Shown one piece after another: positions 4,188-20,069 of a stretch of 20,119 nt of DNA. Each line of letters opens with the position of its first letter. Within the stretch, counting starts at the first letter, position 1. The DNA comes from a virus: the UHGV virus genome UHGV-0174327. One strand, written 5' to 3'. The position numbers were made by a program, and so were the translations under genes. The notes below the pieces were generated by a model, which was not told the origin of the DNA, made no database searches, and saw only the letters and a list, made by a program, of their open reading frames with translations.

Positions 4188-5246
4188 TTACGCTCCGGTT
4201 TCTGCTGCGGCGGCGCTGAAGTCACCAATCTGGATGTTTTCCACCAGTGCAGCGCAGCGATAGTCCTCAACCACATAGGCTTCGTTAACGGATTCAAAAT
4301 TTTCAATCCGGTCACGTTTCGGGTTGTCGATAACTGAACGGCGGCGGGTATCTTCCTGCCAGTAGATGGACAGGTTATCCAGACGGGTGATCAGCAGCGC
4401 ATTCGGCGGGAAGAACGGCGCACGCACTGCCTGCAGGCCACCCATGCGTTTCTGACTGATGATCATATCGGCAGCCAGTTTTTCACTGTTTTCCTGCTCT
4501 TTGTTGACCAGTGGGAAATACTTGTCAGACAGCAGTTCACGACCGCAAATCACCACCAGATCGTCATCGTCCTGGTAGACCACATCGATAAGCTCATTGA
4601 CGGCATCCATCACTACGGCGTCCAGGTTGGCATATTCGCCACCTTTCCCGACTTTCACCGCGCCCGGAGTGGTTTCACCGCCCGTGGTGGTGCTGCCCAT
4701 GACGTGATCCGGTGCATCTTCACGGATTTTCTGCAGCCAGCCTTTGTTCACATCCTGCAGCAGCGGGTTTTCGCTACGGTTGGAGGTTTTCGCACGCTTC
4801 ACGCCGTTAAAGCCGATCATGATGCGGTCCAGTGCCTGACGTTTTACGATGGCGTCACGGATACGCACCTGGAAATCCTGAAACTTCGCCCACAGGTCCA
4901 GCTTCGCGTAGGTCAACACCGTGTCAAAGTTAGTCTGCTCGCATTTGTATTCCACATCGACCATTAGCGTCGGATCGACAGGCTCACGCTCTTTAGCTGT
5001 GGTATCAGTGGTTCCGGCAATGGTGCTGCCAACACCCAGCCCCAGCAACTGACCAGACTGCTCAGTCACTGGCGTGACGTTAATCAGCGTCAGGAATGCG
5101 GCGGACTGCTGGATCTGATCTTCCAGCGTCTGCTGCACAGACGGCTCTACAGTGAACTTGCTGGACAGTTCTTCAACGGCCACACCGTTCAGACGCGCCA
5201 GCTGCTGCAGGTAAGCGTTAAAAGCAAAGCGGGTATTCTTCTTCAT
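4188..5246 (-). CDS. N: major capsid protein (P2 gpN family)
   Basis: 352 aa; MKKNTRFAFNAYLQQLARLNGV...FTVEPSVQQTLEDQIQQSAAFLTLINV... strongly resembles P2 N. Confidence 0.9.
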   Translation of the reverse strand: MKKNTRFAFNAYLQQLARLNGVAVEELSSKFTVEPSVQQTLEDQIQQSAAFLTLINVTPVTEQSGQLLGLGVGSTIAGTTDTTAKEREPVDPTLMVDVEYKCEQTNFDTVLTYAKLDLWAKFQDFQVRIRDAIVKRQALDRIMIGFNGVKRAKTSNRSENPLLQDVNKGWLQKIREDAPDHVMGSTTTGGETTPGAVKVGKGGEYANLDAVVMDAVNELIDVVYQDDDDLVVICGRELLSDKYFPLVNKEQENSEKLAADMIISQKRMGGLQAVRAPFFPPNALLITRLDNLSIYWQEDTRRRSVIDNPKRDRIENFESVNEAYVVEDYRCAALVENIQIGDFSAAAAETGA

Positions 5247-5262
5247 CGGGTTTTGTGCTCCA

Positions 5263-6096
5263 TCAGCAATTGGTCAGAGTGTCAGCGGGGGCGTTACCGC
5301 CTGTTGCACGCTGGCGGTAGTCCTGGCGGCTGTCTTCATGACTCAGCTTATTCACCAGTTCGTTAAAGGCGGTCTGCTGTGCCTGCAGGGCAGTCTCCAG
5401 CTCAGACAGACGTTCTTCCTGCTCAGACAGGGATTTTTCGGTGCGTGCGCTCAGGTTTTGCTGCTCAGTGGCGACCAGCTCCACGGCCTTATGCACATCA
5501 GAGAACCGGGCATCGTCGGACTGCTCTTTTTTGGTGAACAGTGCCGTGACGCGGGCAAACAGGGACGGCTTGTCCTCCTGGATTTCTTCCAGTTCGATCA
5601 CCGTTTCCTCTGCGGCGGTAAAGAGATTGGCGGGATTCTGCTTGCGGTTTGCCAGCGGGTTATGGGCTGCACTGGCGCTGAATGTCAGCATTTCAGTGCC
5701 CAGACTGGCAGGGTCATCAGTGGCAGCCAGGCCGACCAGGTAGGCTTTGCCCGTATCAGCAAACTTCGGACTGACTTCCATAGATGTGAATAATTTCTGG
5801 CCTTTTTTCACCAGTTTCACCAGGGATTCCGTTGGCTCAACGTCGGCATACAGCGCCATCTTGCCTGCCAACGGACCTTCCGTGATTTCTTCAGCAAACA
5901 GCGCCGTCACCTTGCCGTAGCGGTTAAAGGTGCTGTCCGGCAGATAAGACTTGATGTGCTCAAGGTTAATCAGCGCGGTATACACCGCCGGGTTGTAGCT
6001 GGCTGCCATCTGTTCCAGCCATTCACGCTGGATTTCGCGTCCGTCGGTGGTGGCACCTTCCACCCCGATGCGAAAACGCTTTGCTTTCACTGTCAT
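5263..6096 (-). CDS. O: capsid scaffolding protein/protease (P2 gpO family)
   Basis: 277 aa; ...RFRIGVEGATTDGREI...INLEHIKSYLPDSTFNRYGKV...YLVGLAATDDPASLGTEML...ATGGNAPADTLTNC resembles P2 O. Confidence 0.9.
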   Translation of the reverse strand: MTVKAKRFRIGVEGATTDGREIQREWLEQMAASYNPAVYTALINLEHIKSYLPDSTFNRYGKVTALFAEEITEGPLAGKMALYADVEPTESLVKLVKKGQKLFTSMEVSPKFADTGKAYLVGLAATDDPASLGTEMLTFSASAAHNPLANRKQNPANLFTAAEETVIELEEIQEDKPSLFARVTALFTKKEQSDDARFSDVHKAVELVATEQQNLSARTEKSLSEQEERLSELETALQAQQTAFNELVNKLSHEDSRQDYRQRATGGNAPADTLTNC

Positions 6097-16932: not shown

Positions 16933-17057
16933 GATGCAACATTCCTCGTTTAATGATGATTAATCAGGACGAATACGGATCGTTTGTATTTTGTGAACAC
17001 CATAAACATACGATCGCACAGTGAAATCGTCAAGATAAAAGTTCACTTGGAGTGACC
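16933..17057. promoter_or_regulatory. immunity switch region between apl (-) and cI (+): promoters and operators
   Basis: 125-bp intergenic region with repeated GTGAA/TTCAC half-sites (16993..16998, 17021..17025, 17042..17046) and AT-rich -10-like hexamers; exact promoter positions not resolved. Confidence 0.4.
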
Positions 17058-17627
17058 ATGAATTTGGAGAAAGGCGGACGAGGCGCTATAGAGCGCATGG
17101 TAGAAGCTTATGGATTCAAGACTCGACAGGCGTTGTGCGATCATTTAGGAATCTCTAAAAGTACACTCGCCACACGCTACATGCGTGACTCATTCCCAGC
17201 AGAATGGGTAATCCAGTGCGCCCTTGAAACAGGCACCTCGCTTAATTGGCTCACAACCGGGCATGGTTCAAAGCAAACTTCAGGTAATACAAATACTATG
17301 GAAGTTGCTAAATATGTATTATCTGATGGGGCCTTGTGTGAAGACGGTTTTTATATTTTCGATAGAGAATTTCTACCGTCGGCATTCAAGAATCTTTTTG
17401 TAATCACAGATAATAATTCTGAATTTATTTGTGATAAGGAATTTGATGATATACGTGATGGTAAATGGGTAATAAGTATTGATGGCGAAATAACGATCCG
17501 TGACATTACTCGTTTACCCGGTGGAAGAATCTTCGTCGAGGGTGGAAACAGAGCCTTCGAATGCAAGATAGAAGATATTGAAATAATTGGTAAAATTATA
17601 AGTTTAACAGTCAAGTATGTTAAATAG
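17058..17627 (+). CDS. cI: CI immunity repressor (186-type; N-terminal HTH domain plus AT-rich C-terminal domain)
   Basis: MNLEKGGRGAIERMVEAYGFKTRQALCDHLGISKSTLATRYMRDSFPAEWVIQCALETGTSLNWLTTGHG N-terminal HTH; ATG 17058 preceded by GGAG; about 189 aa. Confidence 0.7.
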   Translation: MNLEKGGRGAIERMVEAYGFKTRQALCDHLGISKSTLATRYMRDSFPAEWVIQCALETGTSLNWLTTGHGSKQTSGNTNTMEVAKYVLSDGALCEDGFYIFDREFLPSAFKNLFVITDNNSEFICDKEFDDIRDGKWVISIDGEITIRDITRLPGGRIFVEGGNRAFECKIEDIEIIGKIISLTVKYVK

Positions 17628-17642
17628 TACCGGGAGGAAATT

Positions 17643-17834
17643 ATGCTTGGTAAGGTATTTTTTGTGGTTTTGTCATGTTCTTTGTTATTAAACCCACTAG
17701 CTACCTATGCTAGAAATTATCCCTGCTCAGGGAAAAAGGGAGGTGTTTCTCACTGTACCTCTGATGGCAAATTCGTTTGCAATGATGGAACTATTAGTAA
17801 ATCCAAAAAAATCTGTACTAAAAACTCACGATAA
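17643..17834 (+). CDS. small secreted cysteine-rich protein (signal peptide plus ~40-aa Lys/Cys-rich mature part) co-transcribed with cI
   Basis: [23 protein letters not shown] signal-peptide-like N-terminus; 4 Cys in mature region; strong SD GGGAGG 6 nt upstream; AT-rich. Confidence 0.5.
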
Positions 17835-18022
17835 CTTTTGCTTTTATATCTGCGCCTAAAATAAAAATGAGCCACAGGTTAACCGCAAAAGTTACATGCT
17901 CACATAGCAAAAAGAATAGCCTACTTCATTATGGCTTCAGTGAGATGTATGGTCGCAGGATTTCATACATTGACACTGGTTATACATACAGTAAAAATGC
18001 TCTCTATTGGAGGGCATTTTTT

Positions 18023-19054
18023 ATGGCTGTACGAAAACTCACCACAGGAAAATGGCTTTGCGAATGTTACCCCGCCGGACGTAGTGGGCGTCGTGTGCGT
18101 AAACAATTCGCCACCAAAGGCGAAGCACTGGCTTTTGAGCGTCACACGATGGAAGAAACCGAAGCAAAGCCCTGGCTGGGTGAATCAGTGGATCGTCGAA
18201 CACTGAAAGACGTGGTTGAGCTATGGTTCAAACTACATGGTAAATCACTGACTGCTGGGCAGCATGTCTATGACAAATTGCTGCTGATGGTTGACGCTCT
18301 GGGCAATCCCCTTGCAACTGATCTCACATCTAAAATGTTTGCCCACTATCGAGATAAACGCCTGACAGGTGAGATCTACTTCAGCGAGAAATGGAAGAAA
18401 GGAGCAAGCCCGGTCACCATTAACCTGGAGCAAAGCTATCTAAGTAGTGTTTTTAGCGAACTATCCCGCCTGGGCGAATGGTCGTATCCGAACCCACTGG
18501 AGAACATGCGAAAATTCACCATCGCAGAAAAAGAGATGGCATGGCTTACCCATGAGCAGATTGTTGAATTGCTGGCTGATTGCAAACGTCAGGACCCAAT
18601 TCTGGCACTGGTAGTTAAGATATGCTTAAGCACAGGCGCACGTTGGCGTGAAGCCGTAAATCTTACCCGCTCACAGGTGACCAAATACCGAATTACCTTT
18701 GTAAGAACGAAGGGGAAGAAAAACAGAAGCATCCCTATCAGTAAAGAGCTTTACGAAGAGATCATGGCGCTTGATGGGTTCAATTTCTTTACAGACTGCT
18801 ATTTTCAATTTTTATCCGTGATGGAAAAAACGTCTATCGTGCTCCCTCGCGGTCAACTGACACACGTTCTGCGCCATACGTTTGCGGCGCACTTCATGAT
18901 GTCGGGTGGAAATATCCTGGCCTTACAAAAAATTCTCGGGCATCACGATATAAAAATGACTATGCGTTACGCACATCTGGCACCGGATCACCTGGAAACT
19001 GCATTACGGTTTAATCCGCTGGCAACACTACCAACATCAATAGCAAGTTTTTGA
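18023..19054 (+). CDS. int: tyrosine integrase (P2/186 Int family)
   Basis: MAVRKLTTGKWLCECYPAGRSGRRVRKQF... start with SD GGAGGG; C-terminal HxxR...Y catalytic region (VLRHTFAAHF...MTMRYAHL); ORF-track 17867 start is an extension. Confidence 0.85.
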   Translation: MAVRKLTTGKWLCECYPAGRSGRRVRKQFATKGEALAFERHTMEETEAKPWLGESVDRRTLKDVVELWFKLHGKSLTAGQHVYDKLLLMVDALGNPLATDLTSKMFAHYRDKRLTGEIYFSEKWKKGASPVTINLEQSYLSSVFSELSRLGEWSYPNPLENMRKFTIAEKEMAWLTHEQIVELLADCKRQDPILALVVKICLSTGARWREAVNLTRSQVTKYRITFVRTKGKKNRSIPISKELYEEIMALDGFNFFTDCYFQFLSVMEKTSIVLPRGQLTHVLRHTFAAHFMMSGGNILALQKILGHHDIKMTMRYAHLAPDHLETALRFNPLATLPTSIASF

Positions 19055-19112
19055 AAATGCGTATTTTGCCCTGTTGAGCTAATATTCTTTTTTTTCACAT
19101 GGAGCACTATCA

Positions 19113-19382
19113 ATGAATAAGTTTCAGCATCAGGGAGCGGAATTGCGCAACAGAGCCAAAGAATTGGCTTTATCCGTACTTAAAACTCACCCAGATGCCC
19201 AAAAAAACGGCAACGGCGTTAAGCAAGCTGAGGTATTTCGTCTAAGCGGCCTCGATTGGGGAGAAAAACGGAAAGCAACAAGTTCGAACCAACAATATTG
19301 GGTTGTTGCACTATTGCGTGAACTAGAAGAGGAGGGGTTAGTCGAACAGATTGAAGATAGAGGCCCCTGGCGTCTAAGGTAA
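19113..19382 (+). CDS. hypothetical 89-aa protein between int and the host junction
   Basis: ORF with moderately biased composition, possible winged-helix-like C-terminus; origin (phage or host) unresolved. Confidence 0.4.
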   Translation: MNKFQHQGAELRNRAKELALSVLKTHPDAQKNGNGVKQAEVFRLSGLDWGEKRKATSSNQQYWVVALLRELEEEGLVEQIEDRGPWRLR

Positions 19383-19451
19383 AACAAGTGGCGACAAAGT
19401 GGCGGCAGCGGTTGGCATTACCCCGTAATAACCACCACTGACCACCAACCC

Positions 19452-19483
19452 AACTTATTGTTTTTACTCTAACTTATTGTTTT
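19452..19483. repeat. 13-bp direct repeat AACTTATTGTTTT (two copies, 19 bp apart) in the int-distal junction region
   Basis: Copies at 19452..19464 and 19471..19483 seen directly. Confidence 0.6.
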
Positions 19484-19487
19484 CATT

Positions 19488-19516
19488 AACCCATTTACAT
19501 AAATGGGTTTTTTGTT
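19488..19516 (+). terminator. rho-independent terminator (perfect 10-bp stem AACCCATTTA/TAAATGGGTT followed by TTTTTGTT)
   Basis: Inverted repeat and T-tract seen directly. Confidence 0.5.
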
Positions 19517-19532
19517 ATCTAAAACTTATCTA

Positions 19533-20069
19533 CTACCCTGCAACCCTCTCAACCATCCTCAAAATCTCCTCGCGCGATAGCGGCTTACGGTCGGTGACAA
19601 AATGCAGCGTCATCCCCTCAATAAACGCATCAAGCGCGCGGGCGGTTCCGGGTTCAAACCATTGTTCGAGCGTTTGCTGACTGCGCTGCATCCAGTTTTG
19701 CATTACCGTTTTTAATAGCGGTTTTCGGCTAGCCAGCGCGTAGAGCTGGTACATCAGCTCCATATTATCCGGCGTTGCAACCTGTGAGCTGTAGATCATA
19801 TCGGTGATAGCCTGGCATGCGCCTTGAGCATCACTAACATCGCTAAAAAATGCCTGATATTGCCGGGACATAATCTCAGTAAAACTGCTGAACGCCTCCA
19901 GCAACAACTCATCAATTCCTGAAAAATAGTAGGTCATCGATCCCAACGGTACCCCGGCAAGGGTAGCAATTTTGCGGTGCGTAACAGCATGTATTCCGTA
20001 AAGTTTCACCGCCTCCAGCGTGGCCTGGATAATTTTTTCTCGCCGTTGCGGATCGTTAGCGCGACGCAT
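19533..20069 (-). CDS. TetR/AcrR-family transcriptional regulator (probable host gene)
   Basis: N-terminal HTH region [41 protein letters not shown] typical of TetR family; ATG at 20069 chosen over extended ORF-track start. Confidence 0.7.

Follow-up and report, generated by a model that had tools for sequence, protein, structure and literature searches.

A YdcA-family gene behind the cI repressor of a 186-like Escherichia coli prophage and its predicted exported, cysteine-rich product

The viral genome UHGV-0174327 was analyzed as one stretch of 20,119 nucleotides (the window), which is part of a P2/186-like E. coli prophage integrated beside rcdA (ybjK). Between the genes of the phage repressor (cI) and the integrase (int), the window carries a 63-codon open reading frame (ORF), here called ydcA (Table 1), whose product is, as judged from profile matches, a member of the catalogued and uncharacterized YdcA family (PF27300/NF007463/PHROG 6000). 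Its pattern of substitutions indicates that it is a real gene under strong purifying selection. The product is very probably a real exported protein, and in all likelihood the gene is co-expressed with cI in the lysogen, judging from the layout of the locus. The explanation that we favor, and that we hold as a whole to be slightly more probable than otherwise, is a periplasmic YdcA mini-protein made together with CI, which would give the lysogen a benefit at the level of the envelope, possibly exclusion.

Family membership was consistent across databases. The NCBIfam model NF007463 (PRK10040.1-2) matched over its full length (protein residues 5 to 63 against model positions 1 to 58 of 58) with 114.6 bits against a curated cutoff of 93 (E value of 1.3e-33), phrog_6000 matched end to end (E value of 3.1e-34), and an identical database protein (P0001) bears the precomputed Pfam assignment PF27300 "YdcA." A Pfam release older than PF27300 gave only a spurious subthreshold match for the ORF. 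P0001 represents a 90%-identity cluster with 355 members on at least 1000 contigs, and RefSeq names the product either "YdcA family protein" or "hypothetical protein." The first-pass annotation of this DNA had recognized neither the catalogued family nor the chromosomal paralogue in E. coli K-12. Nearly all of the 63 database homologues carry PF27300, and a profile built from 46 homologues found 445 representatives of 50%-identity clusters (E value of ≤1e-3). The family has a four-cysteine core motif, PCSGxKGG[VI]xxC...F[VI]CxDG[ST]xSxSKxxC, preceded by a signal-peptide-like segment. In the 46-sequence alignment (A1), P27, K32, C38, F44, C46, G49, S52, S54, K55, and C58 show no variation, and C28 is conserved in at least 90%. 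The family represents a widespread and very strongly conserved domain and includes a K-12 gene and apparently also a structural subunit of the Dot/Icm secretion system (see below).

The K-12 protein YdcA (b1419, 57 amino acids [aa]) is described in the literature as an uncharacterized small protein that bears a signal sequence and is expected in the periplasm. It is 57% identical to the window protein over 53 aa and has the same layout, in which some 20 aa of signal peptide precede a four-cysteine core of some 35 aa. The K-12 gene, however, is chromosomal and stands alone between rydC and hokB, whereas the window copy lies in a prophage cI-int operon. The two also differ in their models, since the window protein fits the NF007463 equivalog but reaches only 68.5 bits with the K-12 model NF007462, below its cutoff of 118, and in net charge, which is +7 in the more lysine-rich window protein and +5 in K-12 YdcA. 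Other genes called ydcA in the literature (an F-like plasmid DNA methylase, a gene of the gonococcal genetic island, and a Bacillus rhomboid) are name collisions. Weak phmmer matches (E values of 0.2 to 2) to lectins and to proteinase inhibitors of the potato type II family were taken as matches of cysteine and glycine composition, and Foldseek found no meaningful match in the BFVD library of viral structures. The UniRef label of P0001 is "Conjugal transfer protein" (A0A0J2AJ46), and the basis of this label could not be found.

The substitutions in the ORF show strong selection. Against three diverged prophage copies, the proportion of synonymous differences (pS) in the 32-codon core is saturated at 0.85 to 0.96, while that of nonsynonymous differences (pN) is 0.03 to 0.05; despite this saturation, the mature core is 88 to 97% identical, and in one of the compared pairs 31 of 32 residues are common with nearly every codon synonymously different. 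Along the same lines, E. coli alleles with 13 differences in 192 nucleotides (nt) have 10 or 11 synonymous and 2 or 3 nonsynonymous codon changes, and the replacements (N17S, A20T, and R24K) all fall within the signal peptide or at its junction, leaving the remaining mature peptide unchanged. The ORF was found in 595 of 5426 complete E. coli genomes (about 11%), and 589 of these copies gave a contiguous alignment over at least 80% of the 301-nt query. A nonfunctional ORF, untranslated or hitchhiking with cI, is effectively refuted by this pattern, namely, by the extreme purifying selection at saturated synonymous sites and the contiguity of 589 of the 595 copies, to which can be added the conservation of the Shine-Dalgarno site in diverged copies and a family that spans three proteobacterial classes. 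What would fit it is that in a few genomes an insertion sequence (IS) disrupts the gene without loss of the prophage: in E. coli EA7 (L021) and MB50 (L022), elements of the IS5 family have inserted into the ORF in independent events, at window positions 17710 to 17713 and 17739 to 17743 (ISKpn26, which duplicated 4 bp at a CTAG, and ISKpn13, which duplicated 5 bp), with cI and int intact.

The signal peptide was called by a heuristic analysis of the n, h, and c regions together with a family-wide comparison. In the N terminus, a lysine at position 4 is accompanied by 19 uncharged residues in a row, and the predicted cleavage site reads T-Y-A|R, with T-Y-A at −3 to −1. Among the 46 homologues, the first 22 residues or so are hydrophobic and highly variable and the next 35 or so almost invariant; a −3/−1 site (small residue at −1, allowed residue at −3) stands directly before the conserved domain in 44 of 45 members, the median signal peptide is 22 aa long, and 41 of 45 homologues have K or R within the first eight residues. 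AlphaFold2 predicted a helix at residues 3 to 15 and, for the mature part, a small beta hairpin with a predicted local distance difference test score (pLDDT) of 85 to 92. The predicted mature product (RNYPC...NSR, 40 aa) would have a mass of 4.29 kDa, a pI of 9.7, and a charge of about +7, with 7 lysines, 2 arginines, and 4 cysteines. What had been described from the sequence at first, a signal-peptide-like N terminus followed by a lysine-rich mature part of about 40 aa with four cysteines, is borne out.

The same annotation had put forward an entericidin or bacteriocin-like peptide as candidates. A lipoprotein, an entericidin-like peptide, or a bacteriocin-like toxin would also be small, cationic, and cysteine containing, and Cys12 is indeed preceded by V-L-S; however, we consider this alternative highly improbable. 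The stretch VLSC (residues 9 to 12) makes a poor lipobox, as the residue at −2 is Leu and the hydrophobic stretch ahead of C12 counts only 7 residues, and K4 falls inside the stretch that PROSITE rule PS51257, as we read it, requires to be uncharged. In addition, C12 is missing from many homologues and elsewhere occurs in a non-lipobox context (LLFCAF and LLICLF). No immunity, processing, or export genes lie between cI and int, which leaves the bacteriocin-like candidate without flanking partners, and Pfam, NCBIfam, and PHROGs gave no homology to such families.

The position of the gene suggests when it would be expressed. As first described, the ORF begins 15 nt after the cI stop codon (TAG, 17625 to 17627) and has a Shine-Dalgarno sequence, GGGAGG, at 17632 to 17637, followed after 5 nt by the ATG at 17643; we could confirm these coordinates and the spacing in the sequence. 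A simple terminator scan found no terminator-like site between cI and the ORF. The record of phage 186 annotates a lysogenic operon pL-cI-int-orf69, and the K139 pL operon likewise runs through cI and int. Because of the 15-nt gap, the lack of a terminator in the scan, and these annotated operons, we infer a single cI-ydcA transcript, and the earlier placement of the gene in the lysogenic cI-int transcription unit probably stands, given also its own Shine-Dalgarno sequence. The position of pL upstream of cI would follow by analogy with 186; a simple promoter scan of the apl-cI interval found no promoter on the plus strand and a pR-like site on the minus strand (17033 to 17005). Another promoter-like site on the minus strand (17623 to 17595, TTAACA-17-TATAAT, 11 of 12 consensus positions) is antisense to the 3′ end of cI and could easily have arisen by chance in DNA so rich in AT. 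Downstream from ydcA, the spacer folds with a z score of −4.7 (17825 to 18030), and a hairpin at 17993 to 18021 with its T6 run buries the Shine-Dalgarno sequence of int (GGAGGG, 18009 to 18014) immediately upstream of the start codon. This hairpin (17993 to 18022) was not among the calls of the simple terminator scan. It could act as a terminator or attenuator, which would make cI-ydcA the main lysogenic message and keep int expression low.

The arrangement is shared by a broad set of relatives. A cI gene, a short gap bearing a Shine-Dalgarno sequence, and ydcA follow one another in 186-like prophages of Escherichia, Hafnia, Klebsiella, Enterobacter, and Yersinia, the gap measuring 15 to 23 nt with AAGGA or AGGAG in diverged prophage copies. 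The pairing is found with CI proteins only 38 to 71% identical to that of the window. In an Escherichia relative, YdcA is 67% and CI 71% identical, and in Enterobacter the ydcA stop codon comes 3 nt before the int start. The Haemophilus phages HP2 and S2 carry an unannotated 59-codon homologue, whose ATG in HP2 overlaps the cI stop codon as TAATG, which suggests translational coupling. The comparison of these loci indicates that the pairing of cI and ydcA is old and recurrent, across genera and in HP2, and this speaks against the earlier wording that the gene was "inserted" between cI and int, in the sense of a recent event.

The gene is nevertheless an accessory one in the 186-like E. coli prophage, as seen by comparing junctions. 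In phage 186, the cI stop abuts the int start at position 22433, and phage vB_EcoM-813R9 (L020) has at the cI-int junction a gene for a 558-aa PD-Lambda-1 defense protein and no ydcA; because of these two cases we regard ydcA as accessory and the cI-int junction as a cargo site. The label of a moron proposed at first pass fits the absence of the gene from 186 and 813R9 and its IS disruption in EA7 and MB50. The cargo seen at related junctions comprises PDC-S20 (a KAP NTPase), a 347-aa protein of unknown kind, and PD-Lambda-1, and in the ydcA loci that hold such cargo it always comes after ydcA, never between cI and ydcA. The coordinates of the junction cargo are 5198 to 6529 in L003 and L010, 4247 to 5290 in L008, and 1804 to 3480 in L020.

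To see the family beyond these prophages, we surveyed its loci with one genome per species and retained 80, which come from Alpha-, Beta-, and Gammaproteobacteria. Roughly 10 of them adjoin cI or int genes of the 186/HP type. Four others (Oceanisphaera, two Comamonas species, and Moraxella) are tight same-strand operons in which the gene follows a λ-type repressor with HTH_3 and Peptidase_S24 domains, and in an Iodobacter locus it follows an HTH_3-only regulator; the remaining loci are chromosomal. From these neighborhoods, the family is basically a chromosomal one that appears to have been captured repeatedly by temperate phages, preferentially into the repressor transcription unit. That unrelated temperate phages (186-like, HP2-like, and those with a λ-type repressor) place ydcA right after the repressor argues for a usefulness that is specific to the lysogen.

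A different reading of the same distribution is that of a moron for host fitness, an extra and constitutive copy of an envelope stress protein that does the same job as chromosomal YdcA and has no role against phages. Its identity of 57% and common architecture with the K-12 protein would fit this well, as would the chromosomal location of most relatives in housekeeping neighborhoods across the three proteobacterial classes. In the literature, deletion of ydcA sensitizes E. coli W to 300 mM 3-hydroxypropionate (3-HP), and ydcA has been reported as acid induced under YdcI. The gene also outlasts the decay of its prophage. The degraded remnants in C43(DE3) (L023) and P276M (L025) keep cI, the YdcA-family gene, and int all intact, while elsewhere they show pseudogenized replication and cII genes or large deletions. 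Since the C43(DE3) remnant keeps the gene, the laboratory B-strain lineage carries a YdcA-family gene. The C43(DE3) copy (WP_001321204.1) is identical to the window protein at 61 of 63 residues, and as this strain derives from BL21(DE3), the parent should have the gene too; another laboratory strain with the gene is E. coli HS, so that suitable lysogens for experiments are at hand. However, E. coli hosts already have ydcA, so that any gain could lie only in dosage or regulation; a pure stress role does not predict a recurrent slot behind two unrelated kinds of repressor; and the 3-HP phenotype is a single report without a mechanism. On balance we consider this reading possible but doubtful. 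Were the gene merely to duplicate a host stress protein, it would be an ordinary fitness moron.

For a molecular role, relatives in which the domain occurs in other contexts provide leads. The best match in the PDB was Dis2 of Legionella pneumophila (Lpg0823; 7MUC/7MUD chain AN), by phmmer (E value of 3.2e-5), by profile (3.1e-4), and as rank 1 in Foldseek, although the similarity is weak (E value of about 1e-4). The motif C-S-x-K-x-G-G-[VI]-x-x-C-x-S-x-G-[KR]-[FL]-V-C-N-[DN]-G is common to both proteins, and Dis2 is secreted, rich in disulfides, and periplasmic, as is predicted for the window protein. Dis2 differs in having two tandem lobes, five disulfides, and 124 aa, whereas the window protein would be a single free domain of 40 aa. 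The structure papers on the Dot/Icm system place Dis2 close to the outer membrane, where its two disulfide-pinned lobes touch DotK, DotC, and DotD. Two papers on Dis2 call it "species-specific" and without structural neighbors and mention no link to YdcA. From the shared motif and the matches, both lobes of Dis2 appear to be YdcA domains.

Other contexts came from a survey of fusions that covered 31 long family members. In five of these the domain directly follows the signal peptide and is joined to a secreted nuclease fold (Endonuclease_NS in three, SNase in one, and PLDc_2 in one). The three folds are mutually unrelated, and the fusions come from metagenomes (the metagenomic entries P0194, P0173, P0125, and P0199 and loci L105, L047, and L050 belong to the observations on fusions and on the neighbors given below). 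One further long member is fused to VasL, a protein of the type VI secretion system (T6SS). In other species, genes for SNase and Metallophos proteins directly adjoin the YdcA gene, and on the Citrobacter plasmid NZ_CP053574 (L017) a T6SS cluster includes, directly after tssE, a gene (4926 to 5327) whose 133-aa product has a YdcA domain at its N terminus. Taken together, these fusions and neighbors suggest that the domain is a small extracytoplasmic module that binds nucleic acid or else an envelope partner. In the literature that we searched, neither the linkage to repressors of two unrelated types nor the relation to Dis2 nor the nuclease fusions appear to have been described.

One form that such a module could take is a periplasmic nucleic-acid-binding protein, the phage copy trapping or diverting incoming phage, transforming, or conjugative DNA. 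Along with the three nuclease folds and the SNase and Metallophos neighbors, this would be in keeping with the mature charge of about +7, the conserved G-x-K-G-G loop, the invariant K32 and K55, and the presence of phage-borne copies in the naturally competent genera Haemophilus, Moraxella, and Acinetobacter. We nonetheless regard it as unlikely. Fusions account for only 5 of the 31 long members and for few of the 445 representatives, they come from metagenomes, and they are equally consistent with a domain for surface retention or partner binding; the high positive charge is not kept in distant members, such as the repeats of P0078; Dis2 makes no contact with the central secretion channel; and structure searches recognized no DNA-binding fold. 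Still less likely is the more general proposal that the YdcA domain is an extracytoplasmic binder of DNA or polyanions and that the repressor-linked copies in temperate phages of several lineages form a new class of periplasmic factors, which would intercept DNA arriving from superinfecting phages or by transformation or conjugation. If true, it would assign a function also to Legionella Dis2 and E. coli YdcA.

Alternatively, the product could be an accessory subunit or modulator of an envelope machine (type IV or type VI secretion or conjugation) in the manner of Dis2, which would alter conjugation or T6SS behavior in the lysogen. The closest apparent relative with a solved structure is a stoichiometric component of the Dot/Icm outer membrane cap, and the Citrobacter T6SS-cluster member and the VasL fusion lie in the same direction. 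However, Dis2 is part of a type IVB cap, whereas neither the window nor the related prophage loci contain secretion system genes, and most family members lack such neighbors. Loss of Dis2 has only subtle effects according to the literature, and the UniRef name that would suit a conjugation role has no traceable origin, so we find this alternative distinctly improbable.

The remaining features of the region are listed in Table 1. From 17000 to 19600 the window matches several complete E. coli chromosomes at 100% identity, and in these RefSeq lists, in order, a phage repressor protein CI, the hypothetical or "YdcA family" protein, a phage integrase, a hypothetical protein, and rcdA. CI matched Phage_CI_repr (2.8e-33) and Phage_CI_C (2.7e-27) in Pfam and is 32% identical to 186 CI and 38% to HP2 CI; the ORF list also has an upstream GTG start at 17052. 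The integrase (Int_N, 3e-32; Phage_integrase, 6.8e-22) is 99% identical to Int of phage vB_EcoM-813R9 and 56% to Int of 186, and its start is most plausibly at the ATG listed in Table 1 (MAVRKL...). The AT richness noted for the gene at first pass is real (GC content of 0.36, against 0.50 for the whole window) and is not peculiar to it, as the C-terminal half of cI has a GC content of 0.34 and the AT-rich tract (0.36) covers about 17300 to 17963, that is, the C-terminal half of cI, the ORF, and the spacer downstream. In composition, then, ydcA is part of a mosaic block with part of cI and does not stand out alone. CI itself is mosaic, as its first 62 residues (the helix-turn-helix domain) are identical to those of a prophage CI that is only 71% identical overall. 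Homology of the int module to Klebsiella and E. coli phages (96% identity) runs from about position 17964 onward. After int, at the position of 186 orf69, lies an 89-aa ORF on the plus strand (19113 to 19382), for which searches of Pfam, NCBIfam, and PHROGs gave no significant family. Between this ORF and the rcdA side of the attachment site, and close to the latter, is a terminator-like hairpin (19488 to 19509). An Rfam search of the whole window found no RNA families.

Table 1. Features of the cI-int region of the prophage, in window positions
Feature	Position	Strand	Description
cI	17058..17627	+	189 aa from ATG 17058 (PGAP-style start); phage 186 type; first gene of the lysogenic operon
cI-ydcA spacer	17628..17642	+	15 nt, TACCGGGAGGAAATT
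YdcA-family gene	17643..17834	+	63 codons plus stop (17832-17834)
Predicted Sec/signal peptidase I signal peptide	17643..17711	+	23 residues; predicted cut after A23
Mature peptide (predicted)	17712..17831	+	40 aa; C28, C38, C46, and C58 of the precursor
ydcA-int spacer	17835..18022	+	AT-rich to about 17963
Hairpin and T6 run	17993..18022	+	13 bp; 17993-18005 pairs with 18009-18021; loop ATT
int	18023..19054	+	Tyrosine integrase; final conserved gene of the lysogenic operon

The explanation that we favor would run as follows. A lysogenic promoter upstream of cI would make one transcript spanning cI and ydcA, from which ydcA would be translated by means of its own GGGAGG site. The precursor is predicted to pass through Sec and to be cleaved behind Ala23 by signal peptidase I, and the 40-residue product would fold in the periplasm into a knot containing the hairpin and pinned by two disulfides, a fold proposed because of the four conserved cysteines and the disulfide-pinned lobes of Dis2. 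There it would probably serve as a small binding module close to the outer membrane, since what appears to be the same domain in Dis2 packs against the outer membrane lipoproteins DotC, DotD, and DotK. Its biological role would be an envelope-level benefit to the lysogen that is not needed for lysogeny itself and for which temperate phages would retain the gene, and the most likely benefit would be interference with the entry of foreign phage or DNA, paralleling Glo of phage K139. Of the possible functions, we rank one of exclusion type first, by this analogy, although for that function specifically the case is tentative. The function, once found, may define a new type of periplasmic factor of prophages and would provide an annotation for hundreds of "hypothetical" genes, and the repressor linkage, the relation to Dis2, and the nuclease fusions make a long-standing "y-gene" more testable.

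Several observations weigh against this explanation. Glo is not a homologue (hhalign gave a probability of 1.5% with only the signal peptides aligned), and because of this the idea of exclusion draws on position only. No family of the PADLOC-DB 2.0 defense models matched the ORF at an E value of ≤0.01. Only about 15 of the 80 species-level loci adjoin phage repressors or integrases, and because most members of the family are chromosomal, its ancestral function is probably not an antiphage one; in the literature, K-12 ydcA has been linked to acid and 3-hydroxypropionate tolerance. Finally, not all phage copies sit in a repressor unit, as Moraxella phage Mcat17 (L018) and Acinetobacter Vieuvirus phages (L035 and L036) have YdcA ORFs among their tail genes. 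These ORFs sit upstream of a large tail gene and are unannotated in the Acinetobacter records.

Among known systems, the lambda genes rexA and rexB are exclusion genes that are cotranscribed with cI and made in every lysogen. The Rex proteins are cytoplasmic or located in the inner membrane and act by abortive infection, and they have no sequence relation to YdcA. The likeness lies in the accessory slot right after the repressor, which YdcA relatives occupy in the prophages of Oceanisphaera, Comamonas, and Moraxella. Glo of K139 provides the nearest precedent in function and has a similar gene order, K139 being a related Vibrio phage of the Peduoviridae in which PL and cI are followed by a gene for a small Sec-exported periplasmic protein and then by int. 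According to a secondary citation and the GenBank annotation, Glo is soluble, resides in the periplasm, and takes part in superinfection exclusion. It differs from the window protein in its length (137 aa), in not being cysteine rich, and in the extra orf2 between cI and glo, and a tblastn search of phages with the window protein gave no Vibrio match. Hotspots for cargo have been described between cI and int in K139-like phages and, as a minor one, between int and the primase gene in P2-like phages (Rousset et al. 2022, PMC9122126; NAR 2026, PMC13586616). Compared with these defense cargo hotspots of P2-like phages, ydcA has no PADLOC match and is the constant element of its locus while the other cargo is swapped, and what they have in common is the use of the cI-int junction as a site for cargo.

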